Assembly (NCBI GenBank): GCA_046726375.1 | Contig: JBKPAJ010000045.1 | Location: 52-64,051 of the forward strand | DNA: 64,000 nt | From: Acidobacteriota bacterium | GTDB taxonomy: Bacteria > Acidobacteriota > Vicinamibacteria > Vicinamibacterales > UBA2999 | Direction: 5' to 3' | In this document: positions 9,687-62,935 of the stretch, one piece after another | Numbering within the stretch: the stretch's first letter is position 1 | Layout: each line of letters starts with the position of its first letter | Notes under the pieces: generated by a model | Told to the model about the DNA's origin: nothing | What the model saw: the letters and a program-made list of their open reading frames with translations, nothing else | The model's database searches: none | Translations under genes and position numbers: made by a program

Positions 9687-9699
9687 AGGTCCCATGGTT

Positions 9700-9715: not shown

Positions 9716-9762
9716 GCGTCCTATCGGCGGCGCGCGTTCTTCGTTCTTCGTTCTAAACCCAA

Positions 9763-9877: not shown

Positions 9878-9909
9878 TAGTTCCCGCGCAGCGGGATAAT
9901 GCGGCTTCG

Positions 9910-33903: not shown

Positions 33904-35297
33904 TGCCGTATTGGGCGACACAGATCTTCTATCTCCTTTCCGCGATTCTCTTCATCGTCGGCCTCAAACGGATGAACAGCCCCGCGACGGCGCGGAGGGG
34001 CAACCTGATCTCGCTCGTCGGCATGCTGCTGGCAATGGCTGTGACGCTCCTCGATCAGACGATCGTGTCGTACTGGATCATCCTTGCCGGTGTCGCGGTC
34101 GGCACCACGCTTGGACTGTGGCAGGCCTACTCGGTACGAATGACGGCGATGCCGCAGATGGTTGCGCTCCTCAATGGATGGGGCGGCGGCGCGTCGATGG
34201 TGGTGAGCGCGGCGGAGTTCCTGCGCTCACATCAGGGCAACGCGCTCATTCCTACACAGACGGGCATCGTGATGCAGGCAGGTCTGCTGATTGGCGGCGT
34301 GACACTGACTGGGAGTCTTATCGCGTTCGCGAAGCTTCAGGAATGGATGACGGGCCGTCCGATCACGTTCCGCGGGCAGAACGCGTTCAACGCGCTGGTG
34401 TTTTTGACGCTCGTCGGACTCGCGTGGTGGCAGGTATCAACGGAAGTGCCGCTGCTGGTGCCTTTTTATCTGCTCTGCGCGTTGTCGCTGGTGCTCGGCG
34501 TGTTGCTGGTGATTCCGATCGGCGGCGCCGACATGCCCGTCGTCATCTCTCTGCTCAATTCGTACTCAGGCATCGCCGCGGGAATGACCGGGTTTGTGAT
34601 CAACAACGAAGTGTTGATCATCGCGGGCGCGCTGGTCGGAAGCTCCGGCATTATTCTGAGCCAGATCATGTGCAAGGCGATGAATCGTTCGTTGATGAAC
34701 GTGCTGTTCGGCGCCTTTGGGACGCATACGACGGCCGCCGGCGGCGCCAAATCCGCGGCCGGTCTCACGGTGAAATCGATCATGCCCGAGGATCTGGGTG
34801 TGCAGGTCGCGTACGCGCAAAAGATGATTGTCGTGCCCGGCTACGGGATGGCGGTGGCGCAGGCACAGCACCAGGTGCGTGAACTGGCCGATCTCGTCGA
34901 GAAACGTGGCGGCACCGTGAAGTACGCAATCCATCCCGTCGCCGGCCGCATGCCAGGTCACATGAACGTGCTGCTCGCGGAAGCGAACGTTCCTTACGAT
35001 CGCTTGTACGAGATGGACGAAATCAATCCCGAGTTCGATGAAACAGACGTCTGCCTCGTGATTGGCGCCAACGACGTGGTCAATCCGGCCGCGCGTCACG
35101 ACACCGGCTCGCCGATTTACGGCATGCCGATCATCAACGCCGACAAGGCGAAGATGTGTGTCGTGCTCAAACGGTCGATGGCCGCCGGGTTTGCCGGGAT
35201 TGAAAACGAGCTGTTCTACGCGCCGCGCACGTGGATGCTCTTTGGCGATGCCAAACAGAGCTTGCAGAAGTTGATCTCGGAAGTGAAACAGGCCTGA
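33903..35297 (+). CDS. pntB: NAD(P) transhydrogenase subunit beta (second copy)
   Basis: It has the same dIII motifs as the first copy ([42 protein letters not shown]). Confidence 0.9.
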   Translation: MPYWATQIFYLLSAILFIVGLKRMNSPATARRGNLISLVGMLLAMAVTLLDQTIVSYWIILAGVAVGTTLGLWQAYSVRMTAMPQMVALLNGWGGGASMVVSAAEFLRSHQGNALIPTQTGIVMQAGLLIGGVTLTGSLIAFAKLQEWMTGRPITFRGQNAFNALVFLTLVGLAWWQVSTEVPLLVPFYLLCALSLVLGVLLVIPIGGADMPVVISLLNSYSGIAAGMTGFVINNEVLIIAGALVGSSGIILSQIMCKAMNRSLMNVLFGAFGTHTTAAGGAKSAAGLTVKSIMPEDLGVQVAYAQKMIVVPGYGMAVAQAQHQVRELADLVEKRGGTVKYAIHPVAGRMPGHMNVLLAEANVPYDRLYEMDEINPEFDETDVCLVIGANDVVNPAARHDTGSPIYGMPIINADKAKMCVVLKRSMAAGFAGIENELFYAPRTWMLFGDAKQSLQKLISEVKQA

Positions 35298-48308: not shown

Positions 48309-48578
48309 CTACTGCAGTCGCGGCGGGACTGGCAGCCATTCGCGGGACGCGTAATCGGCCATCGTGAGGCCCAGCAGGATAAACAGGAAGCAGAACCCTG
48401 AAACCACGACGAGCTTCGTCAGCCGGCTGCTGTACTTCACGTGCATGAAGTACAGAACCACCAGTGTCGCCTTGATCGACGCGATCCCGAGCGCCACTAT
48501 CTTGTTCAACTCTCCAAGGTTCACGTAGGCGACGAGCAGGTAATGGTCGTGAGGACCATCAGCGTGAGAAGATGACAA
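48309..48578 (-). CDS. Prokaryotic cytochrome c oxidase subunit IV-like small membrane protein (orphan, possibly N-terminally shortened)
   Basis: The stretch LNKIVALGIASIKATLVVLYFMHVKYSSRLTKLVVVSGFCFLFILLGLTMADY matches the COX4_pro pattern. The first helix appears short. Confidence 0.55.
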   Translation of the reverse strand: MSSSHADGPHDHYLLVAYVNLGELNKIVALGIASIKATLVVLYFMHVKYSSRLTKLVVVSGFCFLFILLGLTMADYASREWLPVPPRLQ

Positions 48579-48867
48579 CGTCGGACTTGACCGAGGCGAT
48601 GCACTCCAGTCCGTTCGTTGACGAGACGTCGACGTTGTGCATCTGGAACCTTGACGTGAAGCTGACCACAGGCGATGAGATGCGCGACCGCATCATCGAC
48701 GCGCTTGACCCTCGTCCGAGTTCGTGGATAAGATCGCAGCCTCAATCGACGGGATCTCGGTCCTCCCCTTCGGCAAATTCTTTGGGGGCGCGAAGGTGTG
48801 TCATCACAGTTCCATCGCGGACTCGCGGCCTGGGCAACTGTCCTCCAGCGCCCCGGAGTCCTAGCCG

Positions 48868-49515
48868 TTGGCCCAGATTTTTCCCCCTTGGTGGAACAAG
48901 CTGCCGATCGTCGCCGCCATCGCGGGCGTCCTCGCGCCGACGCTCGCCGTCGCGGGCGTCTGGTACTACTTTTCCCCGTGGTACACAGACGTTGGCTACC
49001 GTCCGGTTCAGCCCGTCCCGTACAGCCACAGGCTCCACGTCGGCGAGCTTGGTCTCGATTGCCGCTACTGTCACGCCTCGGTCGAGATTTCTAACGTCGC
49101 CAACGTTCCGCCCACACAGACGTGCTTGAACTGCCATCAGACCGTGAAGCGGGACAGCCCGCTGCTCGCACCGATTCGGGACAGCGCCCAGAGTGGCCGG
49201 CCGATGCACTGGATTCGCATTCACAAGCTTCCCGACTATGCCTATTTCACACACCGCGCGCACGTGTCGGCAGGAATCGGCTGCGTGACCTGCCACGGCC
49301 GCATCGACGAAATGGAAACGGTCACCCAGATGACGCCGCTCAGCATGAGCTGGTGCCTCGACTGCCACCGCAACCCGGGTCCGAATAGACGCCCGGTCTC
49401 GGAAGTCACCAACATGAAGTGGACGCCTCCGCGGGACATACAAGCGCTCACGGCGCAGCTCGACCGCGAACGACCGGTCAATCCGCCGACTGAGTGTTCG
49501 GGGTGCCACCGGTGA
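48868..49515 (+). CDS. actA: Alternative complex III subunit ActA-like pentahaem cytochrome c
   Basis: An N-terminal TM helix is followed by VGYRPVQPVPYSHRLHVGELGLDCRYCH. Five CxxCH motifs are present (CRYCH, CLNCH, CVTCH, CLDCH, CSGCH). The start codon is TTG. Confidence 0.85.
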   Translation: MAQIFPPWWNKLPIVAAIAGVLAPTLAVAGVWYYFSPWYTDVGYRPVQPVPYSHRLHVGELGLDCRYCHASVEISNVANVPPTQTCLNCHQTVKRDSPLLAPIRDSAQSGRPMHWIRIHKLPDYAYFTHRAHVSAGIGCVTCHGRIDEMETVTQMTPLSMSWCLDCHRNPGPNRRPVSEVTNMKWTPPRDIQALTAQLDRERPVNPPTECSGCHR

Positions 49516-52500
49516 GTCGGACCTACTGGCGAAGTCTCGCGCAGATCGAGGACCGCCCCGAATTCCGCGCCGCTCTCGAGCGCGAATTCCCGGAGGGTGC
49601 CTCGGAGCTTCCTGCAGGGATCACCCGGCGCGAAATGATGATGCTCGTGGGTGCCTCGCTGTCGCTCGCGGGGCTCGCGGGGTGCCGGCGCCCGGTCGAA
49701 GAGATTGTCCCCTTCGTCACCGCTCCCGAGGAGATCGTCCCCGGGATCCCGCGCTACTACGCCACGACAATGCCGTTCGGCCGGAGCGCCTACGGCCTGA
49801 TCGTCGAGAGCCACGAAGGGCGACCGACCAAGATCGAGGGAAACCCCGCGCACCCCTCGACCCTCGGAGCCTCCAGCTCGCGCGTCCAGGCATCCGTGCT
49901 CGGCCTCTACGATCCTGACCGCTCGCAAGCCGTCAGGTTGAAAGGGGAGCGGAAGGCCTGGAGCGATTTCGTGACCGCTTGGGGACCGCTGTCCGAGGCT
50001 CATGCAGCGGATGGGGGCGCCGGCCTTGCGGTCCTCTGCGAGTCCTTCTCCTCGCCAACTCTGGCGCGCTTGGGCGTCGAACTCCGTGCTCGCTATCCGA
50101 AAGTACAGTGGGCGACCTACGACGCCGTCAGCGACGAGAACCGGCTCGCTGGTCTGCGGTCCGCCACGGGGCGCGGCCTCGACCTCATGCTCCGGCTCGA
50201 TCAAGCGTCCGTCATCCTCACCCTCGACGCCGACCCGCTCCTGACCGACCCCGAGATGATCCGTCACACCCGGGACTTCGCGGCCGGAAGGCGTGCCGGA
50301 GCCTCGGGTGGCGCGATGAACCGACTCTACGCTGTGGAAGGGGTCTACTCGCTGACGGGAGCCATGGCGGATCATCGGCTTCGTCTCGAGAGCCGCCAGA
50401 TCGCGCCCTTCCTCGCCGCCCTCGCTGTACGCCTTGCTCCGCCCGCGGCTGGAGCCGCGATCCAAGCGGCAGCGAGCGTCCCGGGTGTCGACCCGCGCTG
50501 GATCGACGCGCTTGCCAAGGACCTTCTGGCGAACCGCGGCAAGGGGTTGATCGTGGCTGGGGAACGCCAGCCCGCCGCCGTCCATGCCGCCGTCTGCGCC
50601 CTGAACACGTATCTCGGCAATACCGGCAGGACGGTCACCTACTTCGAGACGAAGGACGCGGCGCTTCCGAGCGTGAGCTCGCTGGCCTCGCTCGCCTCCG
50701 CGATGAAAGCGGGATCGGTCCAGACGCTGGTCGTCCTCGGCGGCAATCCTGTGTTCGATGCCCCCGCCGATCTCGACTTCGCGTCGGCCATGGCGAAGGT
50801 CCCTCACTCGATCGCGCTCGGGCACACGGTCGACGAAACATCCTCCAACGCGGAGTGGCATATCCCTCGTGCTCACTACCTCGAATCGTGGGGAGACGCG
50901 CGCGCGATAGGAGGCGCGCTCAGCGTCGTGCAGCCGCTGATCCTCCCCCTGTTTGGCGGACGAAGTCCCGTTGAAGTGCTGGGGCTGATGGTCGGGGGCA
51001 AGGATAGTCCCGGCTACGACATCGTGCGCGAGACCTGGAAACCGATCCTCGGCGAGGGCGAGTTCGACAAGAAGTGGAACCGCGTCCTGCACGATGGATT
51101 CCTTGCCGGCAGCGAGCTTCCCGAAGTCCTTCCGGATCTCACCAAGGAGCCCTTTGCCGATCTCGCGCGCCTGATCGGAGGCGCGAGCGGAGCCGGATCC
51201 CGGGCCGATGCGGGATCTCCGGGTGGCCTGGAGATCGTGTTTCTCCCATCCCCGTGTCTTCACGACGGCCGATTCGCCAATAACGGGTGGCTGCAGGAGC
51301 TTCCCGATCCCCTCACCAAAATCACGTGGGACAACCCCGCGCTCGTGAGCCCCAAGACCGCCCAGTCACTCGGTCTTGCGAATGAGGAAGTAGTCCGTCT
51401 CGATTATGCGGGCCGCTCGCTCGAGCTCCCCATCTGGATCCTCCCCGGCATGGCCGACGGCGTGGTGGCCCTCACCCTCGGCTACGGTCGTCAGCGCGCA
51501 GGGCGGATTGGGTCCGGGGTCGGGTTCGACACGTTCATGGTCCGATCGTCCCGCGCAACTGGCTTCGACAACGGCGTCAAACTTACCAGGCTCGGACGCA
51601 AGTACCCGCTTTCACCGACGCAGGACCACGGCAGCATGGAGGGCCGTCCCCTCGTCCGCGAGTCGACGCTGGCCGAGCTTCGATCGGACCCGGCCTCGCA
51701 GTCAGCACGAGCCGAGAGCGCGCATGAGGGGAGTTCGCCACAGGCCCCCAAAGGAGGAGGAGTCCCCGGCACACTTGGCGTCTTCGAGGAGGAACCGCAT
51801 CACTTCTCACTCTGGAAGGAGCATACCTACGATCAGGGCCACCAGTGGGGGATGACCATCGACTTGAACGCCTGCATCGGCTGCAACGCGTGCATGACGG
51901 CGTGCCAGAGCGAGAATAACGTGCCGGTTGTCGGCAAGATCCAGGTTGCGAAACAGCGCGAGATGCACTGGCTGCGGGTCGACCGGTACTTCTCCGGCGA
52001 GCCCTCCGGCAGCCCGGAGGTCGTTTTCCAGCCAGTTCCCTGCATGCAGTGCGAGGATGCCCCTTGCGAGCAGGTCTGCCCCGTGGCCGCGACCGTCCAC
52101 GACAGGGAGGGCCTCAATGTGATGGTCTACAACCGGTGCATCGGGACCCGATACTGCTCGAACAACTGTCCCTACAAGGTTCGCCGCTTCAATTTTTTCA
52201 ACTTCACCAAGGACACGCCCGACATCCTCAAACTCGCGATGAACCCGGACGTCACGGTCCGCGCGAGGGGCGTCATGGAGAAGTGCACCTACTGCACGCA
52301 GAGGATCAGTCGGGCGAAGATCGATGCGAAGCTCGCGGGGCGCGCGCTCCGTGACGGCGACGTCAAGACGGCCTGCCAGCAGGCCTGCCCGGCCTCGGCC
52401 ATCGAGTTCGGAGATCTTCGGGACGCGTCGAGCCGGGTCGTGAAGGCGAAGGCCGACCCGCGCAACTACGCGCTCCTCGACGAGCTGAATACCAGGCCAA

Positions 52501-52607
52501 GGACGACCTATCTGGCCAAGGTGCGCAACCCGAATCCGGACCTCGAGGGCGCGCGGACCGACGCGGGAGCCTGGCCCGCAGAGAAGGAAGAAAGGCCCGT
52601 TTCATGA
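49512..52607 (+). CDS. actB: Alternative complex III subunit ActB-like (Tat-exported molybdopterin-oxidoreductase-like domain fused to a 4Fe-4S ferredoxin domain)
   Basis: The N-terminus is YWRSLAQIEDRPEF, the Tat signal is ITRREMMMLVGASLSLAG, and HEGRPTKIEGNPAHP is present. The ferredoxin half has CIGCNACMTAC, CMQCEDAPCEQVCP, CIGTRYCSNNCPYKVRRFNFF and CQQACP. A GTG start overlaps the actA stop. Confidence 0.9.
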   Translation: MSRTYWRSLAQIEDRPEFRAALEREFPEGASELPAGITRREMMMLVGASLSLAGLAGCRRPVEEIVPFVTAPEEIVPGIPRYYATTMPFGRSAYGLIVESHEGRPTKIEGNPAHPSTLGASSSRVQASVLGLYDPDRSQAVRLKGERKAWSDFVTAWGPLSEAHAADGGAGLAVLCESFSSPTLARLGVELRARYPKVQWATYDAVSDENRLAGLRSATGRGLDLMLRLDQASVILTLDADPLLTDPEMIRHTRDFAAGRRAGASGGAMNRLYAVEGVYSLTGAMADHRLRLESRQIAPFLAALAVRLAPPAAGAAIQAAASVPGVDPRWIDALAKDLLANRGKGLIVAGERQPAAVHAAVCALNTYLGNTGRTVTYFETKDAALPSVSSLASLASAMKAGSVQTLVVLGGNPVFDAPADLDFASAMAKVPHSIALGHTVDETSSNAEWHIPRAHYLESWGDARAIGGALSVVQPLILPLFGGRSPVEVLGLMVGGKDSPGYDIVRETWKPILGEGEFDKKWNRVLHDGFLAGSELPEVLPDLTKEPFADLARLIGGASGAGSRADAGSPGGLEIVFLPSPCLHDGRFANNGWLQELPDPLTKITWDNPALVSPKTAQSLGLANEEVVRLDYAGRSLELPIWILPGMADGVVALTLGYGRQRAGRIGSGVGFDTFMVRSSRATGFDNGVKLTRLGRKYPLSPTQDHGSMEGRPLVRESTLAELRSDPASQSARAESAHEGSSPQAPKGGGVPGTLGVFEEEPHHFSLWKEHTYDQGHQWGMTIDLNACIGCNACMTACQSENNVPVVGKIQVAKQREMHWLRVDRYFSGEPSGSPEVVFQPVPCMQCEDAPCEQVCPVAATVHDREGLNVMVYNRCIGTRYCSNNCPYKVRRFNFFNFTKDTPDILKLAMNPDVTVRARGVMEKCTYCTQRISRAKIDAKLAGRALRDGDVKTACQQACPASAIEFGDLRDASSRVVKAKADPRNYALLDELNTRPRTTYLAKVRNPNPDLEGARTDAGAWPAEKEERPVS

Positions 52608-53209
52608 ACGTCCGCACACGTCGCGTGCTGGGCGCGCTCGCGTTGACCTCTCTTTTCGCCCTCCCCGGCTGCGCGCGCGGCTGCACGTCGAGCCGTCCTC
52701 CCATCCATCTCAACCCGAGCATGGACGACCAGCCGAAGGTCCTCTCGCAGACGGCCAGCGATTTCTTCTTCAACGGTGCGTCCATGCGCGAGCCCGTTCC
52801 GGGAACGGTCCCGATCGGCGGGCTGAAGGAAGACACGGCCTTCTTCACCGGAAAGGGGGCGGACGGACAGTTCGTCGCGGCGATCCCCCATCCCGTGGAC
52901 GAAGCGCTTCTCGAGCGCGGCCGCCAGCGCTACGCGATCTACTGCCAGCCTTGCCACGACGCTCGAGGGGACGGCAAGGGGATCCTGTTCCAGCGAGGCA
53001 ACGTCCCCACCGCTACATTCCACCAGGACAAGATCCTGAACTACACGGACGGGCAGATCTTCGACGTCATCACGAACGGGGTAGGGCTGATGCCGGCGTA
53101 CCGCTGGCCGATCCCTCCTGCGGACAGGTGGGCGATCATCGCCCACGTGCGAGAGCTCCAGCGCAAGCGCCAGGCGAGCGCCACTGTCGCGCCCGCGGGT
53201 ATCAAGTGA
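52604..53209 (+). CDS. actE: ActE-like lipoprotein monohaem cytochrome c
   Basis: It has a lipobox-like FALPGC and a single CQPCH. The motifs GVGLMPAY and DRWAIIAHVRELQ are present. The start overlaps the actB stop (ATGA). Confidence 0.75.
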   Translation: MNVRTRRVLGALALTSLFALPGCARGCTSSRPPIHLNPSMDDQPKVLSQTASDFFFNGASMREPVPGTVPIGGLKEDTAFFTGKGADGQFVAAIPHPVDEALLERGRQRYAIYCQPCHDARGDGKGILFQRGNVPTATFHQDKILNYTDGQIFDVITNGVGLMPAYRWPIPPADRWAIIAHVRELQRKRQASATVAPAGIK

Positions 53210-53223
53210 GTGAGGGAGGCACC

Positions 53224-55158
53224 ATGTCCAATGGCGTGATGAACGGCGCGATGAACCGGAAGGTGTTGTTCCTTCTCGGTCCCGTCACCGTCCTGGTGAT
53301 GTTCGCCGCGGTAGTGTGGATGGCTTCGCAACTGGTGAGCCGCGAGTACAGGGAGCCTTACCGAGCCCCTGCCGCGACCGCGGACCCGACGCCACGCACG
53401 GAAGGACTGGTCGCCGAAAGGGCCGATGCGGAGGCGAAGGCGCGGGCGAAGCCATACGAAGAGGTCGAATACCGGACTGTTCCGGTTGTCGGAAGCCGCG
53501 TGGCCATCTGGGCGGTCGCGCAACTCCACCTGCTATTTGCGGCGTTCGTCCTTGCCGTCCCAATCTTCGCGTTCATCATCGAGGTGATTGGCTACAAGAC
53601 CGGAGATCTGCGATACGACCGGCTCGCGTACGAGTTCACAAAGCTGCTCTCCACCTCCTTCTCACTCACCGCAACCTTCGGAGCGTTCCTGACGTTCATG
53701 CTCATCATTCTGTATCCGAAGTTCACGAACTACCTGATGAGCGTGTTCTCCCCCACCTTTCTGCCGTACGTGCTGCTCTTCTTCGCCGAGGCCTTCTTCC
53801 TCTACACCTATTACTACGGCTGGGGGAAGTTCCATCCCTTGGTTCATCTTGGCCTGGGGCTCGGCCTCAACCTCGTGGGCACGGGGATCATGCTCATTGC
53901 CAACGCCTGGCTCACGTTCATGATGTCGCCGCGGGGGGTTTCGGACCAAGGGGCGGTTCTCTCCGTCTGGGACGCGGTCTACAACCACACGTGGATGCCG
54001 ATCAACGTCCATCGCGTCATCGCGAACATCGCGTTCGGCGGATCGGTCGCGGCCGCCTACGCCGCCTTCAAGTTCCTGCAGGCGGAAACCGACGAGGACC
54101 GGGCGCACTACGACTGGATGGGTTACATCGGTAACTTCGTCGCGATCAGCGCCTTCCTCCCGCTTCCCTTCGCCGGCTACTGGCTCGCGAAGGAGATCTA
54201 CGCGTTCTCGCAGACGCTCGGGCTTACGATGATGGGCGGGGCTTTCTCGTGGCTCTTCATCATCCAGGCCGTATTGATTGGGAACCTTTTCCTCGCCGCC
54301 AATTACTATCTCTGGCTCGGGATGGGGCGGGTCGAGGGGGTGCAGCCGCTTCAGAAGGTCATTAAGTACCTTCTCATCGGGATTGCGCTCTGCTTCGCGG
54401 TCTGGGCGACGCCGCGGTCGATCATCGCAACCGTTTCCGAACTCCGGGCAATGGGAGGGTCGACACACCCGATTCTCGGTTACCTCGGTGTCATGTCGGC
54501 CAAGAACACCGCCGTGAACATCCTGATCCTCACGACGTTCATGAGCTTCCTTCTATATCGCCGGACGGGAAAGGTCGCCACGGTCGCGTGGGCAAAGATG
54601 GGGCATGCGGCGCAGCTCACCATCTTCGCGGGTGCCGCGATCTTCGTCATCTTCCTCGGCATCTATGGGTACTTCGTCGAGGCAACGGTCCGGATCGGTC
54701 TGTCCGTGCCGCAAGTCAGCTCGGTTCTCGTCGCCATGGTGTCGATCACGGCCATCGACCTCTTCCTCTTCCGCGGGGCGAGGAAGACGGGCGAGGTACG
54801 GTGGGGAAGGATGCCCGCGGTCTCCCAGTACGTGCTGATCTTCATCGCGGTCACCTTCACCTGGCTCATGGGGCTCATGGGCTACGTTCGCTCCGGGCTC
54901 CGTCAGCATTGGCACGTGTACGGCGTCATTCGTGACAACTCGGCCGACGCGTTCACGCCCACCCTTGGGTTCGCGACGCGGGTTATCTCGGTGACCGTTC
55001 TCGCGTTCTTCCTCTTGATCGGGTTCGTGTTCTGGATCACGAGCCTGCATGACCGGCCCGATTTCAAGGCGGCCAAGGCCCGCCTCCGCCCACACTCTGA
55101 CGAGATGGAGCCGGAGTTCGCCATGGAAACGGCAGCCGAACATAGGCAGACGTCATGA
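53224..55158 (+). CDS. Cytochrome bd-like (CydA-family) ~14-TM membrane protein without a recognisable Q-loop
   Basis: By-eye alignment to E. coli CydA gives AVAQLHLLFAAFVLAVP ~ LTAMYHFLFVPLTLG, FFAEAFFLYTYYYGWGKF ~ FFLESTFVGLFFFGWDRL, LIANAWLTFMMSP ~ LVANGWMQNP, and INVHRVIANIAFGG ~ KFVHTVASGYVTG. A GAGGGAGG RBS precedes the ATG at 53224. Confidence 0.75.
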   Translation: MSNGVMNGAMNRKVLFLLGPVTVLVMFAAVVWMASQLVSREYREPYRAPAATADPTPRTEGLVAERADAEAKARAKPYEEVEYRTVPVVGSRVAIWAVAQLHLLFAAFVLAVPIFAFIIEVIGYKTGDLRYDRLAYEFTKLLSTSFSLTATFGAFLTFMLIILYPKFTNYLMSVFSPTFLPYVLLFFAEAFFLYTYYYGWGKFHPLVHLGLGLGLNLVGTGIMLIANAWLTFMMSPRGVSDQGAVLSVWDAVYNHTWMPINVHRVIANIAFGGSVAAAYAAFKFLQAETDEDRAHYDWMGYIGNFVAISAFLPLPFAGYWLAKEIYAFSQTLGLTMMGGAFSWLFIIQAVLIGNLFLAANYYLWLGMGRVEGVQPLQKVIKYLLIGIALCFAVWATPRSIIATVSELRAMGGSTHPILGYLGVMSAKNTAVNILILTTFMSFLLYRRTGKVATVAWAKMGHAAQLTIFAGAAIFVIFLGIYGYFVEATVRIGLSVPQVSSVLVAMVSITAIDLFLFRGARKTGEVRWGRMPAVSQYVLIFIAVTFTWLMGLMGYVRSGLRQHWHVYGVIRDNSADAFTPTLGFATRVISVTVLAFFLLIGFVFWITSLHDRPDFKAAKARLRPHSDEMEPEFAMETAAEHRQTS

Positions 55159-55778
55159 TGATCCCGCACACTGTCAGGGTCGGCGCTCTCGTTATCGCAG
55201 CGACTTCGTTCTATACATACGTCGGCCAGCTGGTACCGCAGAAGGAAGTTCTGCCTCCGCAGGAGACTGTGATCAGATCCGACCTGACCACAGCCGACAT
55301 GGTCAAGGTAGGCCGCGAGATCATGGACGGCAAAGGACTCTGCTTTACCTGCCATACGATCGGCAAGACGGGGGCGCTCCGGTTCCCCGACCTCGAGGGA
55401 GTCGATGCCCGTGCGCAGAGCCGCGTCCCCGGCCTGAGCGATGTCGAGTACTTCGCTCAATCGATCTACACACCTGACGCCTTCATCGTGCCGGGATTCA
55501 ATCCGGGCATGCCCGTCATCAACAAGCCGCCGATCGGCCTCACCGATCAGGAGATCCTCTGCGTGATCGCGTACCTCCAGAGTCTTGGCGGCACGCCGAC
55601 GGTCACGCTCCAGACGAGTCACCGCTTCTACACTGCCCCGGCCACAGCCGGCGCGGCGCCAGGTGCGCCTCCGACCGCGCCGGGCGAGAAGTTGCCCCTC
55701 GTCGCTCCTCCGGCCGAGAATGCCGCGCCGGGCGCGGCGACGGTACCCGCAGCCCCCGGGAAGGCAGTGAAACAATGA
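55155..55778 (+). CDS. Membrane-anchored monohaem class-I cytochrome c with Ala/Pro-rich tail
   Basis: It has an N-terminal TM helix, a CFTCH motif, and a distal GMPVINKPP region. The tail is AGAAPGAPPTAPGEKLPLVAPPAENAAPGAA. The start overlaps the previous stop (ATGA). Confidence 0.75.
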   Translation: MMIPHTVRVGALVIAATSFYTYVGQLVPQKEVLPPQETVIRSDLTTADMVKVGREIMDGKGLCFTCHTIGKTGALRFPDLEGVDARAQSRVPGLSDVEYFAQSIYTPDAFIVPGFNPGMPVINKPPIGLTDQEILCVIAYLQSLGGTPTVTLQTSHRFYTAPATAGAAPGAPPTAPGEKLPLVAPPAENAAPGAATVPAAPGKAVKQ

Positions 55779-56593
55779 ACCTCCTCGTCGTCCTCGCCGT
55801 GGCCGCCGCGTTCGTGCTCCTTCGCTTCCGTCGGGCCAATCTGCTGATATGGGCCTGCGCCTGGTGGGTGGGGATCTATGTCCTCCTTCGATTTGGATTC
55901 ACTGCCCCGATTCCCTCCTCTGTTGTCAAGATCTACATGGGAATCAGCTCGATTGCGATCCTGGCGTACATGTCCTCCAGCCAGGAGCGTCGCCAGGAAG
56001 TCTCCCGCCCGCTGATCCGGCTCATGACCGACAGGCGGTACACAGTGCTGCTCTTCGCAATGGTCGTCGCCCTTCCGGCGCTCGCGGCCGCGAACGTTTA
56101 CGTCACCATGAACGCGCCCCTCGAGCCTCCCTTCTTCCCGCGCACGATTCATCCTGCATCGCCTTCCGAAATCACGGTTCACGACAAGAAGATCGCGATC
56201 GACACCGGAGATAGCCCCTTCCGACATCTCGAAACGTCGAGTCCGGAAGAGTTCCGCAAACATCTCGAGAACGGCCGCCGGGTCTATTACCGGAACTGCG
56301 TCTTCTGCCACGGCGACAACATGGCCGGCAACGGCATGTTCGTGCACGGGCTGAACCCGATCCCGACCAACTTCGCCGATGGGGACACGATCGCGAACCT
56401 TCGAGAGACATTTCTGTTCTGGCGAGCCGCTAAGGGAGGCCCCGGGCTGCCCGACGAAGGCGGGCCTTGGGACACGGCCATGCCCGCCTGGGAGAACTTC
56501 CTGAAGGAAGACGAGATCTGGGATGTGATCCTCTTTATCTACGATTTCACGGGCGAGAGGCCGCGCGCCAGAGAGGAGGTCGCGCAGCAATGA
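55775..56593 (+). CDS. Membrane protein (3-4 TM helices) fused to a monohaem cytochrome c domain
   Basis: Hydrophobic helices span residues 1-110. These are followed by a CVFCHGDNMAGNG motif and a distal AMPAW. The start overlaps the previous stop (ATGA). Confidence 0.7.
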   Translation: MNLLVVLAVAAAFVLLRFRRANLLIWACAWWVGIYVLLRFGFTAPIPSSVVKIYMGISSIAILAYMSSSQERRQEVSRPLIRLMTDRRYTVLLFAMVVALPALAAANVYVTMNAPLEPPFFPRTIHPASPSEITVHDKKIAIDTGDSPFRHLETSSPEEFRKHLENGRRVYYRNCVFCHGDNMAGNGMFVHGLNPIPTNFADGDTIANLRETFLFWRAAKGGPGLPDEGGPWDTAMPAWENFLKEDEIWDVILFIYDFTGERPRAREEVAQQ

Positions 56594-58284
56594 TCTCTCG
56601 CCTGGTAGCCCACGGGTGCGTCGTCGTGGTGCTCGCTTTGTCGGGTGTCGCGCCGGCGGGATTGGTGCGCGCGCAGGGCCCCGACCTTGGCACCGAGGCG
56701 CAGCGGGAGTCGGGCAAGAACACCTATCTCAAAAACTGCTCGCAGTGTCACGGCGAAAAAGGGGACGGCGAAGGCTACGCCACGCCGCATCTCCTCCCCA
56801 AGCCGCGCAACTTCACAACGGGCAAGTTCAAGGTTCGCACGACGCCCAACGGAGCGCTTCCTACGCACCAGGACCTCGTCAACATCATCAGGCGCGGCAT
56901 GCCCTACACTTCGATGCCCGCCTGGCCCAACTTCTCCGACCAGGAAGTATCGGATCTTGCCTACTTCATAAAGACTTTCTCCGCCGACTTCTCCAACCCC
57001 GAGCTTGCCCCCCAACCGGTTTCGTTGCCGAGCGCGCCGAGCACCACGAAAGAGTCAATCGAGCTCGGGAAGAAATTGTACGAGGAGACCGGTTGCGTAA
57101 AGTGCCACGGCACGCTCGGTCGAGGCGACGGACCTTCGGCTTCAACGCTGGTGGACGAGTGGAACCATTTGATACGCGCGGCGGACCTCTCGCAAAGGTG
57201 GACCTTCCGGGGAGGTTCGACTCGCGAGGATATCTTCCGGACGATGACCACAGGACTCAACGGCACGCCGATGGCGTCCTTTTCCGACGCCCTTACGCCC
57301 GAGCAACGATGGGCGATCACAGACTTCATCGTCTCTCTCTCGGCGAGCGACGGGCCTGGCTATACCAACCTCGTCGTCGCCAAACACGTTCAGGATCCGA
57401 TCGATCTGACGAAGGGCGCCGCGAACTTCGAATCCGCGGCTGTCGCACGCTTTCCGATCATCGGACAGATCATGGAGCCCGGACGCGCGTTCCATCCTCC
57501 CGCCACCTCCGTGACCGTTCAGGCAATCTACGACGCGGAGTCGATCGCCCTCCTCGTTCGATGGCACGACATGAGCGCGCAGAGGACCGGAAAGAACGAG
57601 CCGTCGCTTCCCGTGCCGCCGGAGGAGGAGGAGGAGGAGGAAACCGTCGCTCCGAAGGGGGGCATCTTTGGCGAGGAGGAAGTCGCCCAGCCTCCGGCCC
57701 AGGACCCCTTTGCGGAACCCGCCGCCGCGGCGACCGCCGCGCCATCGGAGTTCTCCGACGCCGTCGCCATCCAGATCCCTTCGCAGGTGCCAACCGGCGC
57801 CCGCAAGCCCTACTTCATCTTCGGTGACGGCCAGAACTCAGTGGATCTCTGGTTCTTCGATTTGGCGCGCCCCGATCCGCTTCAGTTCACGGGCCGGGGA
57901 AGCGCGAACGTCGCGCCCAACGACACGGGGGATGTCACCGGCGTCGCGAGCTACGACCAGGGAGAATGGTCAGTCGTCTTCAAGCGGCCCCTTCGCGCAT
58001 CCGCGGGCGCCGCGTTTACCCCCGGAGAATTCATGCCCATCGCCTTCTCAGTCTGGGACGGGTTCTCGCGTGAGCGTGGCAATCGGCGAGGTCTCTCGTT
58101 GTGGTACTCCCTCTACGTCGAGCCCGAAAACGTCCCCTCGGCCATCGGCCCGATGGTTAGGACTGCGCTCTTGATCCTCGTCATCGAGTTGGCAGTCATC
58201 GGCTGGGGGCGATCGCGTTACGGTTCTCGGACCCGCGACGAGATTGGCGGTGAGGGGAGACAGCACCCGGCCACGAGCGTTTGA
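56590..58284 (+). CDS. Di-haem cytochrome c fused to an EB_dh/DOMON-type haem-binding domain, with a C-terminal TM anchor
   Basis: A signal peptide is followed by CSQCH and CVKCH with MPAW/GTPMA distal regions. The EB_dh-like stretches are AIYDAESIALLVRWHD, DAVAIQIPS...KPYFIFGDGQNSVDLWFF, GEWSVVFKRPL and IAFSVWDGFSRERGNRRGLSLW. There is an acidic insert PPEEEEEEE and a terminal helix TALLILVIELAVIGW. Confidence 0.7.
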   Translation: MISRLVAHGCVVVVLALSGVAPAGLVRAQGPDLGTEAQRESGKNTYLKNCSQCHGEKGDGEGYATPHLLPKPRNFTTGKFKVRTTPNGALPTHQDLVNIIRRGMPYTSMPAWPNFSDQEVSDLAYFIKTFSADFSNPELAPQPVSLPSAPSTTKESIELGKKLYEETGCVKCHGTLGRGDGPSASTLVDEWNHLIRAADLSQRWTFRGGSTREDIFRTMTTGLNGTPMASFSDALTPEQRWAITDFIVSLSASDGPGYTNLVVAKHVQDPIDLTKGAANFESAAVARFPIIGQIMEPGRAFHPPATSVTVQAIYDAESIALLVRWHDMSAQRTGKNEPSLPVPPEEEEEEETVAPKGGIFGEEEVAQPPAQDPFAEPAAAATAAPSEFSDAVAIQIPSQVPTGARKPYFIFGDGQNSVDLWFFDLARPDPLQFTGRGSANVAPNDTGDVTGVASYDQGEWSVVFKRPLRASAGAAFTPGEFMPIAFSVWDGFSRERGNRRGLSLWYSLYVEPENVPSAIGPMVRTALLILVIELAVIGWGRSRYGSRTRDEIGGEGRQHPATSV

Positions 58285-58310
58285 GCTGATTGGGCCATCC
58301 GGAGGATCCG

Positions 58311-60350
58311 ATGTACAAGAGCATTTACGTTCCCGTCGATAACTCAGACCACTCCAACCGCGCGGTCGCTTGCAGCGTGGCGTTGGGCAAGGCGTTCTCC
58401 GCAAAGCTGGTCGGCTGCCATGTCTACGCGGCAAAACTGCACGACTATCGCTTCAGGCAGATGGAGTACACCCTGCCGGAGGAGTACATCGACGAGGTTG
58501 AACTGGAGCGCCAGCGGAAGATCCACGACAGCCTCATCACGATGGGTCTTAAGCTCATCTCCGACAGCTATCTCGATGGCATGTCGCGTCTCTGCGGCGA
58601 GTCGGGCCTCAGGTTCGAGCCGCGGATGATGGACGGGAAGCATCACATCGAGATCCTCAAGGACCTCGCCGGCTCACAGCACGACTTGGTCGTGATCGGC
58701 GCCCTGGGAGTCGGTCGCGCACGCGACAGCGTGATCGGCTCGGTCTGCGAACGTGTCGCGCGCCAGTCCGACCGCGACGTCTGGGTAGTCAAGCACGTAC
58801 CCGAGCCAGGCGAGCCGGAGCGCGACACGATTCTGGTCGGCATCGACGGCAGCCCACAGTCATTCGGCGCGCTGATGACCGCCATCGAACTGGCACGCAC
58901 GTTCGGCAAGCAGATCGAAGCGATCGCCGTGTACGACCCCTATCTGCACTACTCCGTCTTCAACGGCATCGTCAACGTCCTCACCGAGCAGGCGGCCAAG
59001 GTCTTTCGCTTCGAGGAGCAGAATCAGCTTCACGAGGAGATCATCGACACCGGACTCGCGCAGATCTATCAGTCGCATCTCGAGGTGGGCGAGCGGATGG
59101 CGAGCGAGGACGGCGTCACGATCAAGAAGACGCTCCTCGACGGCAAACCTTTCCAAAAGATCCTCGACCACGCGCGCAAAACGAATCCGTGGCTGATCGT
59201 GGTAGGGCGCATCGGAGTCCACAGCCCGAAGGACGAGACGGGGCTCGGGAGCAACGCGGAGAACATTCTCCGCGCCGCACACTGTGATGTCCTCCTCTCG
59301 ACGCGACTGGAAGTGCCCCGGCTCGACGTGCGCGCCGAGGAGACCGTCCGATGGACGCCCGAAGCCGAGGCGCGCATGCAGAATGTGCCCGAGCAGGTCA
59401 AGGGGATCGCCCGTACCGGCGTTCTTCGTCTGGCGCTCGAGAAGGGGCATTCGGTGATCACGAGCGCCGTGATCGATGAAGCAATGGATCGGTTCATGCC
59501 GAAGAGCGCTTCGGCTGCGACGAAGGCGCTGGCCGAGGCAGTGGCGCTCGAGCGGGCGAAGTCCGGCCCCGTCTCGCTCTGCCGGTCGTGCGGCGTCGCC
59601 GCCACGCAAAGCGGCGCGGTCAAGTGCACCGTCTGCGGCGCCACGGATTTCGAGGTGATCTCGCAGGAGATGATCGAGAAGATCGCCGCGGTGGAGGGCG
59701 GGCTCGAGGAAGAGACGACCTATGACGGACGCAAGCTGCGCTGGTCTGAGGACGCACGGAAAGGCCTCTGGACCATGAAGAACGCGTATCAGCGCCGCCG
59801 CGTCAAGGCGCGTGTCGAAAAGCGCGCGCGCATGATGAAGCTCGACGCGATCACGCTCGATTTCGCACGACAGGTAATCGAGGAGGAGACCGGAGCGCCG
59901 CTCGAGGTCCAGGGTCGTGGCGCGCAAATCCCTGAGAGCGCTGCCGCTGCAGCGGGCGAGGCCCGGCTCGTGGCGCGCGACGACAAGAAGAATCCGCTGA
60001 TCTCCACGTTCGCGTGGACAGACGAGGCCGCGCAGAGGATCCTTCGGGTTCCGGCCGGTTTCATGCGCAACAAAACGCAGGAGAGGATCGAGGAGCTTGC
60101 GCGGGAGCGCGCCGCGACGACGATCGATCTTGGGCTCGTCGAAGAGGGAATCGAGATCGGCAAGCGGATGATGGCCGAGATGATCGCGAACTACCCGTCA
60201 CAGGGCAAGAGCCCTGGAGTCGCGACGGCGGCGCCGGATTCGGCAGCCAACTCCGCGACATCCAATGGCAACGGCTACCTCAATGAGGTAAGTGCGCGGC
60301 CGCCTGTGACGACCGAGCGACCTGCGTCCCGCGACCATCGGGAGACGTGA
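58311..60350 (+). CDS. Multidomain protein: 2 x universal stress protein domains + zinc ribbon + three PCP_red-like (protochlorophyllide-reductase-B C-terminal-like) domains
   Basis: The USP starts are MYKSIYVPVDNSDHS and ILVGIDGSPQS, each with a ...VVGRIG/VIGALG end. The zinc ribbon is CRSCG..CTVCG. The three PCP_red-like repeats are VRWTPEAEARMQNVPEQVKGIARTGV, LRWSEDARKGL and FAWTDEAAQRILRVPAGFMRNKTQERIE. A GGAGGA RBS is present. Confidence 0.6.
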   Translation: MYKSIYVPVDNSDHSNRAVACSVALGKAFSAKLVGCHVYAAKLHDYRFRQMEYTLPEEYIDEVELERQRKIHDSLITMGLKLISDSYLDGMSRLCGESGLRFEPRMMDGKHHIEILKDLAGSQHDLVVIGALGVGRARDSVIGSVCERVARQSDRDVWVVKHVPEPGEPERDTILVGIDGSPQSFGALMTAIELARTFGKQIEAIAVYDPYLHYSVFNGIVNVLTEQAAKVFRFEEQNQLHEEIIDTGLAQIYQSHLEVGERMASEDGVTIKKTLLDGKPFQKILDHARKTNPWLIVVGRIGVHSPKDETGLGSNAENILRAAHCDVLLSTRLEVPRLDVRAEETVRWTPEAEARMQNVPEQVKGIARTGVLRLALEKGHSVITSAVIDEAMDRFMPKSASAATKALAEAVALERAKSGPVSLCRSCGVAATQSGAVKCTVCGATDFEVISQEMIEKIAAVEGGLEEETTYDGRKLRWSEDARKGLWTMKNAYQRRRVKARVEKRARMMKLDAITLDFARQVIEEETGAPLEVQGRGAQIPESAAAAAGEARLVARDDKKNPLISTFAWTDEAAQRILRVPAGFMRNKTQERIEELARERAATTIDLGLVEEGIEIGKRMMAEMIANYPSQGKSPGVATAAPDSAANSATSNGNGYLNEVSARPPVTTERPASRDHRET

Positions 60351-61192
60351 GCGCCTACCGCTTCTGCCGCACGGATGACATCGCGCTTCTCGTTGACGCG
60401 CTGAATCGCTGCTGGGCTCCGTACTTTCCCGACGAGCCGCCCATGACGCCAGCCGCGTTCAAGCGGTCGATCCGCGACCTTCAGGTCTGGTGCAGCAGCT
60501 GCATGGTCGCCTTCTCCGGTTCCGACCCGATCGGCGTGCTCATCGGCGCCAAGCGGCCTTCCGGCACCCTCGTCTACAAGATTGCCGTCCATCCCGATCA
60601 TCGTCGACAGGGTCATGGGCGTCACCTGCTCGCCTCGCTGGGCTCGAAACTCGCGATTCTCGGCCCGCCGAGAATTGTTGCCGAGGTCCCCGAGACTCTC
60701 GCGCCTGCTCACGCGCTGTTCAGCGCAAGCGGATATGTCCAGGAAGCGCTCCTGACTGACTACGTCTTACAGTGTGAAGAGAAAGGCGGCGAACAAAGCG
60801 GATTCGTGATCCCTGTCACGATCGACGATCTCGCCGCCAATGATCTTCTTGGAGAGGCTCAGGTTTGCTGGAAGCGCTCCGTGGAGACTCTCACTGCAAC
60901 GAAGGACGACATCGCGGGACTCGCCGTCGTCGCCGACGAGCGAATCGAAGCCTACCTCCTGTACGTAAAGCGCGGAATGGAGGAGACGGAGATTCTATCG
61001 CTCCGCTGTTTCATCGATGATGGTGGAGCGCGTTTGAAGCAACTGCTGTCGCGACTCCGCGCGCGACACACGGAGACCTTCCGGTTCCCAAAGGTCCACC
61101 CGGCCGAGGTCTCGAAGGAGTGGCTGGAGAAGCTCGGTTTCAGCCCTGACGGTGGGCACTTACTCTACGCAACGAGAGCGCGGTCCGCTTGA
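60347..61192 (+). CDS. GNAT-family N-acetyltransferase (two-lobed)
   Basis: Acetyl-CoA motif A is IAVHPDHRRQGHGRHLL. A GTG start overlaps the previous stop (GTGA). Confidence 0.7.
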   Translation: MSAYRFCRTDDIALLVDALNRCWAPYFPDEPPMTPAAFKRSIRDLQVWCSSCMVAFSGSDPIGVLIGAKRPSGTLVYKIAVHPDHRRQGHGRHLLASLGSKLAILGPPRIVAEVPETLAPAHALFSASGYVQEALLTDYVLQCEEKGGEQSGFVIPVTIDDLAANDLLGEAQVCWKRSVETLTATKDDIAGLAVVADERIEAYLLYVKRGMEETEILSLRCFIDDGGARLKQLLSRLRARHTETFRFPKVHPAEVSKEWLEKLGFSPDGGHLLYATRARSA

Positions 61193-61562: not shown

Positions 61563-62471
61563 ATGAAGCGCTACCACGAGATCGTCGGCGACGGAGGGTC
61601 CAGAATTCTCGAGCAGGTTGCCGAGCAACGCACCCGCATCACCGATGGGCTCGCCGCCGTGCGTCATCTCGTGGCCGTGGGCTCCGGCAAAGGCGGAGTC
61701 GGCAAGAGCACTTTGACGCTACATCTCGCGAGCGCTCTGCGCGCCCGGGGGCTTCGGATTGCGATCCTGGACGCGGACCTCAACGGCCCTTCACTGGCGC
61801 GCATGGCGGGTGTCCAACGTGCGCTGTTCGTCCCCGGCAGCAACAAGGTCGCGCTCCCGCGCACCGGGACCGGAATTGGCGTCTTCTCGATGGGCTCGGT
61901 GATCCCCGAATCGGAGGCGCTCGAGTTCGAGAGTGCGGCGCACGGAGAGTCCCACACGTGGCGCGCCACGAGGGAGTTTGCTCTCCTGGGCGAGATCCTC
62001 GGGTCCTTCGAGTGGGGAACGCTCGATCTGCTGATGTTCGATCTGCCGCCGGGAGCCGAGCGGACCGTACAGTACGCCGATTTTCTTGGGCCGCGGACCT
62101 CGTTCCTGCTCGTGACCATCCCTTCCGAGGTGGCACGCGGCGTGGTCGCGCGCTCGGTGGCAGCTCTGTCGAAGGGACCTAATCGCCTCCTCGGTTACGT
62201 CGAGAATATGAGCGGCTACTACTGCCGCGACTGCGACGCCATCAAGCCGCTGTTCGTGTCACCCGAACCCTTCGACGACGCTCAGGACAGGCGATCGGGC
62301 TTGGGGATCCCCTGCCTCGGGACCGTCCCATTCGATCCCGAGCTTGCACGGCACTGCGATCGGGGGACCTCCCTCGCGGAACTGCCCAACACACCCGTTG
62401 GCCGCGCCCTGGAGCATGTTGCGCAGCAACTTCTGGGCAGCCTCGGATCCACAACGGAGCCTTCCCGATGA
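61563..62471 (+). CDS. Mrp/NBP35/ApbC-family P-loop ATPase (Fe-S cluster carrier)
   Basis: The deviant Walker A is VGSGKGGVGKST. The motifs DADLNGPS and DLPPG, and the CxxC motif YYCRDCD, are present. Confidence 0.85.
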   Translation: MKRYHEIVGDGGSRILEQVAEQRTRITDGLAAVRHLVAVGSGKGGVGKSTLTLHLASALRARGLRIAILDADLNGPSLARMAGVQRALFVPGSNKVALPRTGTGIGVFSMGSVIPESEALEFESAAHGESHTWRATREFALLGEILGSFEWGTLDLLMFDLPPGAERTVQYADFLGPRTSFLLVTIPSEVARGVVARSVAALSKGPNRLLGYVENMSGYYCRDCDAIKPLFVSPEPFDDAQDRRSGLGIPCLGTVPFDPELARHCDRGTSLAELPNTPVGRALEHVAQQLLGSLGSTTEPSR

Positions 62472-62935
62472 AGTTCCTCTGCATCCCCTGCGACAGCCCG
62501 ATGAAGCTCCAAACCATCGGTCCGCCCGAGCGCGGCTCGCTGTCGGTCGTCTACTCGTGTCCTGAGTGCGGATACGAAATCGCGATGCTCACCAATGCGT
62601 ACGAAACGCAGATCGTCCAGTCACTCGGCGTGCGGGTCGGCCCCGAGGGCGGCACAGCGGAGGAAGGCACGTCCGACAGCCGCTGCCCGTTCAACGCGAT
62701 GATTCCGGCGATGGATGATGCGCGACCCTTCGACGCTGCTCAGGGCAGGCCCGATCAGGCCGACGAGCCGATTACCGTTCGGTGGACTGCCGCCGCGGAA
62801 GCCCGTCTCGCAAAGGTTCCCGAGTTCGTCCGCCCAATGGCGAAGAGCGGCATCGAGAGATTCGCCCGAGAGCGGGGAGCACTGGAGGTTGACGAGAACG
62901 TCCTGGACGCTGCCCGTGAGTTCTTTGGTATGTAA
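62468..62935 (+). CDS. Zinc-ribbon + PCP_red-like domain protein
   Basis: The N-terminus has CIPC...CPEC. The C-terminal stretch VRWTAAAEARLAKVPEFVRPMAKSGIERFARERG resembles the PCP_red repeats of 58311-60350. The start overlaps the Mrp stop. Confidence 0.6.
   Translation: MKFLCIPCDSPMKLQTIGPPERGSLSVVYSCPECGYEIAMLTNAYETQIVQSLGVRVGPEGGTAEEGTSDSRCPFNAMIPAMDDARPFDAAQGRPDQADEPITVRWTAAAEARLAKVPEFVRPMAKSGIERFARERGALEVDENVLDAAREFFGM

Follow-up and report, generated by a model that had tools for sequence, protein, structure and literature searches.

A cytochrome bd-like CydA homologue encoded with cytochromes c and paralogous ActA, ActB and ActE proteins in an acidobacterial operon

Cytochrome bd-like oxidases were named in Nitrospira, Nitrospina and anammox bacteria (Lücker et al. 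2010/2013) and have been proposed as the terminal oxidases of Nitrospira (Mundinger et al. 2019). Here we describe a CydA-like gene of this type, located at positions 53224–55158 of the forward strand of a 64,000-nucleotide stretch (64 kb; "the window" below) of contig JBKPAJ010000045.1, assembly GCA_046726375.1, from an Acidobacteriota bacterium of the Vicinamibacterales. The gene product is, as predicted from its sequence, the membrane core subunit of a "cytochrome bd-like oxidase" module, variously called OR-N2, TO_1 and bd-like_3.

The bd-like protein described by Lücker et al. (2013) has 14 transmembrane (TM) helices. Its N-terminal part aligns with CydA and retains the haem b ligands, membrane helices stand in the place of the Q-loop, and quinol-binding residues are absent. 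Its gene clusters with genes for an alternative NxrC, one monohaem cytochrome c and one dihaem cytochrome c. Murali, Gennis & Hemp (2021) define OR-N2 by the same number of TM helices and by an operon that contains multiple cytochromes c and an EbdC homologue, often with no second CydA, and they place OR-N2-type proteins outside the quinol-oxidising qOR family. OR-N proteins had already been recorded in Acidobacteriota, including Vicinamibacteria (Murali et al. 2021). The cluster of bd-like_3, two cytochromes c and alt_NxrC_2 in N. moscoviensis is the same cluster (Mundinger et al. 2019), and the same module is TO_1 in Ca. Manganitrophus, where it reaches the 98th expression percentile (Yu et al. 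2022). The bd-like family was described in 2010–2013 and classified in 2021, and the protein reported here is a further member of it.

Compared with previously described OR-N2 modules, the locus is similar in its membrane subunit, with 14 TM helices, equivalents of E. coli CydA His19, His126 and His186, Tyr at the position of Glu99, Glu at the position of Glu107, no Q-loop and no CydB. The operon is similar too, with two cytochrome c genes and a dihaem cytochrome c/EB_dh (NxrC-like) gene. The locus differs in its host, a Vicinamibacterales-like acidobacterium without nitrite oxidoreductase (NXR), and in that the module shares one operon with ActA'-ActB'-ActE', paralogues of subunits of alternative complex III (ACIII).

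Homology and topology of the CydA-like protein

The gene, and the residues and segments of its product that are discussed below, are as follows.

53224–55158, + strand: bd-like (OR-N2-type) CydA homologue, 644 amino acids, 14 TM helices, stop-free translation with many hydrophobic segments
53245–53346, + strand: TM0, an extra N-terminal helix (residues 8–41), followed by a low-confidence periplasmic linker of ~50 residues (hydropathy, DSSP and model confidence)
53527–53529, + strand: His102, equivalent to E. coli CydA His19, the axial ligand of the active-site haem (pairwise and profile alignments)
53788–53790, + strand: Glu189, equivalent to E. coli Glu107 of the proton channel (profile alignment)
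53845–53847, + strand: His208, equivalent to E. coli His126 (pairwise and profile alignments)
54010–54012, + strand: His263, equivalent to E. coli His186, a haem b558 ligand (pairwise and profile alignments)
54247–54675, + strand: four inserted TM helices (residues 342–484) at the place of the Q-loop, modelled at 342–367, 374–395, 421–447 and 455–484
54901–54915, + strand: R560-Q-H-W-H564, a probable degenerate GRQPW motif (hhalign pairs R560–W563 with R455–W458, E 0.016–0.09)

The protein matches the Pfam family Cyt_bd_oxida_I (PF01654) with 83.8 bits (cutoff 26.2; E 1.2e-23). The match is confined to the N-terminal half of the family, with residues 91–327 covering profile positions 2–239 of 418. 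Solved CydA chains are found by phmmer with E values of 2.5e-14 (9r2g_A), 2.6e-9 (5doq_A), 2.6e-5 (7ose_A) and 6e-4 (6rko_A). Using hhalign in local mode, we compared a 112-sequence family alignment with five canonical CydA proteins (verified PDB sequences). Residues 91–327 align with residues 8–247 of E. coli CydA, at a probability of 96.5%. Similarly, the family profile reached only the N-terminal half of CydA when searched against PDB sequences. The similarity to CydA is far above chance, and helices 1–6 are homologous. The start codon agrees with that of the homologues, whose N-terminus is M[ST]NGVMNG.

The sequence-only reading of this stretch had matched several motifs to E. coli CydA by eye, and had proposed an alignment with solved CydA proteins as a check. 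In that alignment the histidine matches are homologous and not offset. Specifically, the His of AQLHLLF (H102) aligns with His19 in both pairwise and profile alignments, and the His of INVHRV (H263) aligns with His186 in both. The GW of YYYGWGKF is also correctly placed, with G199-W200 equivalent to G117-W118. The Glu of FFAEAFF had been assigned to Glu99. It is instead E189, which aligns with Glu107; the E. coli segment FFLESTF contains E107, and E99 lies in AIEGL. The proposed match of ANAW to ANGW is probable but depends on the alignment. It is recovered, as ANGW or VNAW, in pairwise alignments given a 3-residue deletion, and is offset by three residues in the gapless profile alignment. His19 is the single ligand kept across all bd families, and its equivalent is present here.

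The residues listed for OR-N2 in Table S6 of Murali et al. (2021) are H99, Y183, E190, H213, H269, S563 and W569. The corresponding residues of the CydA-like protein are H102, Y182, E189, H208, H263, S557 and W563. The OR-N2 signature fits, with Y182 at E99, E189 at E107, Y196 and Y198 at F114/F116, and S/A at E445.

The protein has more than 7,500 clusters of relatives at 90% identity, and of the representatives at 50% identity, 255 have E values below 1e-30. The nearest relatives, 85–91% identical, come from metagenome-assembled genomes of Vicinamibacterales. Identity to Nitrospira proteins is 31–46% over the full length. Among them P0389, from Nitrospira sp. Kam-Ns4a, is closest at 45% identity; downstream of its gene come two cytochrome c-type genes and one for a dihaem-c/EB_dh protein. 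Three relatives (P0121, P0124 and P0136) are extended at the C-terminus by one or two cytochrome c domains of the CxxCH type.

Residue conservation was scored in 32 diverse representatives and 59 Nitrospirota relatives. Five histidines are conserved across the family: H102 (29/32 representatives, 50/59 Nitrospirota relatives), H208 (31/32 and 59/59), H263 (30/32 and 59/59), H415 and H564. R560 and W563 are also conserved, as is the pair [KR]323-E324 in the short periplasmic loop after helix 6. Three intramembrane His pairs had been suggested to bind an additional metal or haem. Only one His of each pair is conserved (H208, H263 and H564); the partners H204, H255 and H562 vary in the same two sets. 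An extra metal site formed by these pairs is therefore rejected.

A model of the protein was calculated with AlphaFold2 from 48 homologues (predicted local distance difference test, pLDDT, 71.5; predicted template modelling score 0.74), in which most of the TM core has a pLDDT of 80–94. The model contains 14 TM helices, in agreement with a hydropathy scan and with the earlier count of about 14. Its ten best Foldseek matches in the PDB are all CydA proteins, with probability 1.0 and 500–570 aligned columns. Six helices at residues 89–311 correspond to CydA TM1–6. They are followed by a periplasmic connection of ~30 residues (312–341) and then by seven helices. Because the loop after helix 6 is only ~30 residues long, there is no Q-loop. 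A KLAAIEA-type motif and equivalents of Lys252 and Glu257 are also absent from the protein, as the sequence-only reading had reported for the loop and the motif.

The last three helices (residues 487–608) best match CydA TM7–9. In marginal hhalign matches (E 0.09 and 0.016), residues 494–618 align with E. coli 389–506. Since only these three helices align with TM7–9, the five additional helices consist of one at the N-terminus and four that replace the Q-loop, in agreement with Lücker et al. (2013). The N-terminal helix and its linker had been recognised earlier; the proposed run of about five extra helices at the C-terminus is not what the model shows. GRQPW had been noted as missing, but a relic of it is probably retained at R560-Q-H-W563, ahead of the last helix, in the same marginal alignments. 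The possibility of an NrfD-like fold in the extra helices was also considered and is rejected, because the Foldseek match to ActC (6btm_C) is at chance level (E 0.97, probability 0.10).

Compared with canonical CydA (E. coli 6RKO, Geobacillus 5DOQ, M. smegmatis bd-II 9R2G), the protein is thus similar in the fold and sequence of helices 1–6, in the equivalents of His19, Glu107, His126 and His186, and in the probable GRQPW relic. It differs in having 14 helices instead of 9, in the absence of the Q-loop, Lys252 and Glu257, and at the positions of Glu99, Glu445 and, probably, Met393. The locus also differs from canonical bd loci: the window holds no CydB or CydX, and the neighbours of the gene encode cytochromes c, not cydB or cydDC.

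The operon and its counterparts in other genomes

The gene is one of nine tightly packed + strand genes between 48868 and 61192, which overlap by 4 or 22 nucleotides or are separated by gaps of at most 14. The other eight are as follows.

48868–49515, + strand: ActA', a pentahaem cytochrome c with an N-terminal TM anchor (five CxxCH motifs; PDB 6f0k_A, ACIII ActA, E 1.2e-76)
49494–52607, + strand: ActB', 1037 amino acids, exported by twin-arginine translocation (TAT), with a molybdopterin-like domain and a four-cluster Fe-S domain (PDB 6f0k_B, E 5.7e-302)
52604–53209, + strand: ActE', a monohaem cytochrome c lipoprotein with lipobox LPGC (PDB 6f0k_E, E 3e-55)
55155–55778, + strand: monohaem cytochrome c with an N-terminal TM anchor (Pfam Cytochrom_C); its start overlaps the stop of the CydA-like gene by 4 nucleotides
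55775–56593, + strand: monohaem cytochrome c with ~3 N-terminal TM helices (Pfam)
56590–58284, + strand: fusion of a dihaem cytochrome c with EB_dh (EbdC/NxrC-like haem b), with a signal peptide and a C-terminal TM helix (Pfam Cytochrom_C twice, EB_dh)
58290–60350, + strand: protein with two Usp and two PCP_red domains (Pfam), adjoining the module in most loci across phyla
60347–61192, + strand: GNAT acetyltransferase (Pfam)

ActB' also matches the TAT signal model TIGR04519, QrcB/QrcC and Fer4 domains. ActE' is 50% identical to the product of the gene at the ActE position in a Rhodothermales locus (L061), and its gene ends 14 nucleotides before the bd-like gene. The EB_dh part of the fusion protein weakly matches PDB 2ivf_C (EbdC) and 7b04_C (NxrC). 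Consistent with the earlier mention of co-encoded cytochromes c, four genes with cytochrome c domains flank the CydA-like gene. The bd-like gene is predicted to be co-transcribed with the genes for two membrane-anchored monohaem cytochromes c, a dihaem-c/haem-b subunit and ActA'-ActB'-ActE'. One tentative promoter-like site (48705–48734) lies upstream of ActA', and terminator-like sites of the window occur at chance level.

ActA', ActB' and ActE' are close homologues of subunits of the solved ACIII structures (R. marinus 6F0K, F. johnsoniae 6BTM). Unlike ACIII, the operon lacks ActD and the NrfD-type, quinol-binding ActC and ActF, and the bd-like subunit is its sole polytopic protein. No ActC, ActD or ActF is found in the 64-kb window by tblastn with the L061 proteins as queries. 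Ten polytopic open reading frames (ORFs) lie elsewhere in the window; none of them matches the Pfam families of CydB (PF02322) or NrfD, eight match unrelated families and two match nothing. The earlier statement that the window contains no CydB-like gene is in line with this result. A second CydA-like protein is likewise absent from the window.

At least 596 genome loci with a bd-like gene were found, and 81 fetched loci were examined. In all 61 loci with at least 5.5 kb of downstream sequence, the bd-like gene is immediately followed by two cytochrome c genes and one for a dihaem-c/EB_dh protein, and in none of them does cydB come next. The four-gene module (bd-like protein, two cytochromes c, dihaem-c/EB_dh protein) is an invariant unit. 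Its hosts include Acidobacteriota, Rhodothermales, Myxococcota, Methylomirabilota/Rokubacteria and Nitrospinae.

The upstream genes are distributed more narrowly. ActB' and ActE' lie directly upstream in 33 of the 59 loci that have at least 4.5 kb of upstream sequence, and all 33 are Acidobacteriota-type (≥62% identical to the query). One further locus with ActB'/ActE', L073, was left out of this count because its bd-like gene is frameshifted. ActB'/ActE' are upstream in none of the Rhodothermales, Rokubacteria or Nitrospinae loci examined, and the Nitrospira module is likewise without Act genes.

The order of genes in related genomes bears on the origin of ActA'B'E'. Locus L028 (positions 1–9936) carries canonical ActB (64% identical to ActB'), ActC, ActD, ActE (48% identical to ActE') and ActF, immediately followed by ActA'-ActB'-ActE' and the bd-like gene. 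Because a complete canonical set precedes it there, ActA'B'E' is a paralogous duplicate and not ACIII itself. In five loci (L001, L013, L014, L040 and L073) caa3 oxidase genes (COX2-1-3, with COX4 called in L001) are followed by ActA'B'E' and then by the bd-like module; L013 and L073 also have a remnant of ActF upstream. L061 and one Vicinamibacteria genome (L081) lack a second Act set; there, ActC-D-E-F is followed by caa3 genes and then by the bd-like module. The surroundings of the cluster in related genomes form an aerobic-respiration island, to which ACIII genes and those of caa3 oxidase belong; the latter are usual neighbours of ACIII.

Act genes adjoin bd-like oxidases in two described cases, the OR-N5 clusters of Nitrospirales and TO_3 of Ca. 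Manganitrophus. Those clusters differ in keeping ActC (actABCDE) and in having paired OR-N5a/b proteins (clade V) with 10 helices, compared with the single 14-helix OR-N2 protein and no ActC here. In the open-access literature searched, we found no description of ActAB with OR-N2 in Acidobacteria, although absence there is no proof of novelty. The arrangement in Acidobacteriota of ActA'-ActB'-ActE' directly before the bd-like module, without ActC, ActD or ActF, appears to be new to the searchable literature.

Several further features of the locus were observed. The longest ORF of the dihaem-c/EB_dh gene starts with TTG at 56467. The true start is likely ATG 56590, because it has AGGAGG upstream, overlaps the previous stop by 4 nucleotides and gives a clean signal peptide. 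The dihaem domain of the encoded protein is strikingly similar to PDB 6h5l_B, a "conserved hypothetical cytochrome protein" (E 6.7e-54). There is a single bd-like gene in the window, as in the Acidobacteriota loci; a second bd-like paralogue lies near the module in a Myxococcota locus (L045, 6747–8720, − strand) and in a Nitrospira locus (L082, 2383–4284, + strand).

Genes with PCP_red, the C-terminal domain of the protochlorophyllide reductase BchB, adjoin the bd-like module in Acidobacteriota, Rhodothermales, Rokubacteria and Nitrospira. They include 58290–60350 (+ strand, where PCP_red is fused to two Usp domains) and 62468–62935 (+ strand) in the window, L001 15291–17362 and L082 825–1286, and one also adjoins the Nitrospira P0389 module. 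Their products could have a role in tetrapyrrole handling or regulation. Between the GNAT gene and the second PCP_red gene, an NUBPL/Mrp/ApbC-type Fe-S cluster carrier P-loop NTPase is encoded (61563–62471, + strand), which could serve in the maturation of the operon's Fe-S and haem proteins.

An orphan gene for prokaryotic cytochrome c oxidase subunit IV (COX4_pro; 48309–48578, − strand; E 9e-11) lies shortly before ActA', in the opposite orientation. Relatives hold COX2-1-3-4 at this place on the same strand as the module, and the caa3 genes are gone in the window. The orphan gene looks like a remnant of a rearrangement that removed them.

Elsewhere, the window encodes subunits of proton-translocating NAD(P) transhydrogenase, with two PntB genes and one PntA gene at 29403–30818 (− strand), 30828–32399 (− strand) and 33780–35297 (+ strand); PntB, the beta subunit, is duplicated, with copies on opposite strands. 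Two polytopic proteins have no Pfam match at E ≤ 0.001 (27456–29369, + strand, 637 amino acids, ~11 TM helices; 36999–38618, − strand, 539 amino acids, ~12 TM helices). A 514-residue ORF with two CxxCH motifs lies at 6067–7611 (− strand).

Electron input and chemistry of the bd-like subunit

Membership in the bd-like/OR-N2 family, and a role of the protein in electron transfer through bound haem, are nearly certain. O2 reduction is the leading reading of its chemistry and is unproven. The full composite, in which the subunit is a cytochrome c-fed O2 reductase, has in our judgement an even chance of being correct. The same proposal has been published as a hypothesis for the bd-like family (Lücker et al. 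2013; Murali et al. 2021).

In a cytochrome c-fed oxidase, two or more b-type haems would be bound by the subunit, with His263 holding one close to the periplasmic surface and His102 another in the first four-helix bundle. Electrons would enter on the periplasmic side via c-type haems and not from quinol at a Q-loop, and ActA'B'E' would feed or extend the periplasmic haem wire. They would then pass to the low-spin haem b ligated by His263 and from there to the His102-ligated haem inside the bundle. O2 would be reduced at the latter haem, with cytoplasmic protons arriving via Glu189 and His208. The complex would be a cytochrome c-dependent, non-quinol terminal oxidase, and proton motive force would arise by charge separation.

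This reading is favoured because the proton path of Glu189 and His208 is kept, because cytochrome c fusions occur among the relatives, because the cluster lies in an aerobic-respiration island, and because homologues are highly expressed in organisms without other suitable oxidases. The sequence-only reading had likewise proposed a non-quinol bd member fed by the co-encoded cytochromes c. Its structural part, namely a protein without Q-loop and CydB among c-type cytochromes, is borne out by the data above, whereas the donor is one that we infer.

Several observations weigh against the cytochrome c-fed oxidase. The position of Glu99 is taken by P181/Y182, with no Glu. The haem b595 ligand Glu445 is also lost, its position being occupied by T544 in the marginal hhalign alignment or by S557 in the mapping of Murali et al. 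The haem b558 ligand Met393 corresponds to V498 in the marginal alignment, or to M424/N428 by analogy with Table S6 of Murali et al., and under the hhalign-based alignment the canonical position is not conserved. E189 is kept in only 23 of the 32 representatives, and in the Nitrospirota paralogues, unlike here, the residue is mostly Phe. The literature contains no biochemically characterised member of the bd-like family. The module has been reported in strictly anaerobic anammox bacteria (Mundinger et al. 2019; Lücker et al. 2013), where O2 reduction has no obvious role. Finally, a dedicated ActA'B'E' without ActC and ActF is explained more simply if the bd-like subunit replaces the quinol-binding NrfD-type subunits.

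The last point leads to the strongest alternative, a quinone-coupled complex resembling ACIII, which we regard as possible though rather unlikely. Here the bd-like subunit would not be an oxidase but a haem-b membrane subunit with a new quinone site near the His263 haem, standing in place of the NrfD-type ActC/ActF. The Fe-S clusters of ActB', the haems of ActA' and ActE' and the other cytochromes would form a wire to or from periplasmic acceptors, e.g. caa3. An ACIII-like or reverse-electron-transport role was proposed, and a quinone-coupled one kept open, by Lücker et al. (2013) and Mundinger et al. (2019).

The gene context supplies much of the argument for this alternative. ActA', ActB' and ActE' are genuine ACIII subunits, neither the operon nor the window contains their partners ActC, ActD and ActF, and in L028 the dedicated paralogous set follows the canonical ActB-C-D-E-F. 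The placement of ActA'B'E' upstream fits a quinone-coupled complex at least as well as it fits a cytochrome c-fed one, and caa3 genes adjoin in many relatives. However, the Act arrangement, found in the 33 Acidobacteriota-type loci of 59, is missing from the modules of Rhodothermales, Rokubacteria, Nitrospinae and Nitrospira, and in Rhodothermales the module sits after a complete ACIII, to which a quinone-coupled complex would be redundant. The residues are similarly divided. A quinone-coupled role is consistent with the conserved [KR]323-E324 in the periplasmic loop after helix 6, with the loss of the Glu99, Glu445 and, probably, Met393 positions, and with the report that anaerobic anammox bacteria carry the module (Lücker et al. 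2013). Against it, every known quinol-binding residue and the Q-loop are missing, and the His19 equivalent and the cytoplasmic proton-path residues, which a pure quinone site would not need, are kept.

We consider it unlikely that the bd-like module is a docking and wiring platform for periplasmic partners of the Fe-S or molybdoenzyme type (NxrAB in nitrite oxidisers, ActB' here), with a haem site that is non-catalytic or that reduces another oxidant (NO, H2O2 or chlorite-type). In its favour, Fe-S beta subunits with four clusters usually pair with an EB_dh (NxrC/EbdC-like) subunit, the protein has lost Glu99 and Glu445 from its active site, and ~15% of Nitrospirota paralogues have no His19 equivalent. 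The module has also been suggested as an anchor of NXR (Mundinger et al. 2019). On the other hand, conservation of His102, His208 and His263 is strong in the clade to which the CydA-like protein belongs, and aerobic respiratory genes accompany the cluster. The locus also encodes no enzyme that would be a catalytic partner; in the solved structures of ACIII, ActB serves as a cofactor-less electron wire.

An ordinary cytochrome bd quinol oxidase with cydB/cydX elsewhere in the genome, as the public annotation "cytochrome bd ubiquinol oxidase subunit I" on relatives and the Pfam match would have it, is extremely improbable and effectively refuted, since the PF01654 match is confined to the N-terminal half, the Q-loop is absent, there are 14 helices instead of 9, Glu is missing at the positions of Glu99 and Glu445, the next genes in 61 loci always encode cytochrome c and EB_dh proteins and never CydB, and such proteins fall outside the qOR family (Murali et al. 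2021).

Implications for the bd-like family

A hybrid "ACIII-bd" complex can be proposed tentatively for Acidobacteriota (Vicinamibacteria, Polarisedimenticolia and Thermoanaerobaculia). The duplicated ActA'B'E' would have left its NrfD-type partners and physically joined the bd-like/cytochrome c/NxrC-like module. We think this somewhat less probable than the cytochrome c-fed chemistry itself.

The bd-like module is very common in abundant soil Acidobacteriota, given the number of clusters noted above. Because bd-like genes routinely carry the label "cytochrome bd ubiquinol oxidase subunit I", high-affinity quinol oxidases are miscounted in soil metagenomes. Heterotrophic Acidobacteriota, and the Rhodothermales that have the module, may offer easier access to the isolated complex than nitrite oxidisers do.

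Nitrospira, Nitrospina and Mn-oxidising Nitrospirota are presumed to use bd-like oxidases as their terminal oxidases, and such oxidases are also part of anammox NXR clusters. The linkage to ActA'B'E' provides a comparative clue to the function of the family. If the hybrid complex exists, the CydA-like subunit would be the membrane partner of a four-cluster Fe-S protein across the bd-like family, and the complex would represent either a new haem-b type of quinol site or a hard-wired oxidase.

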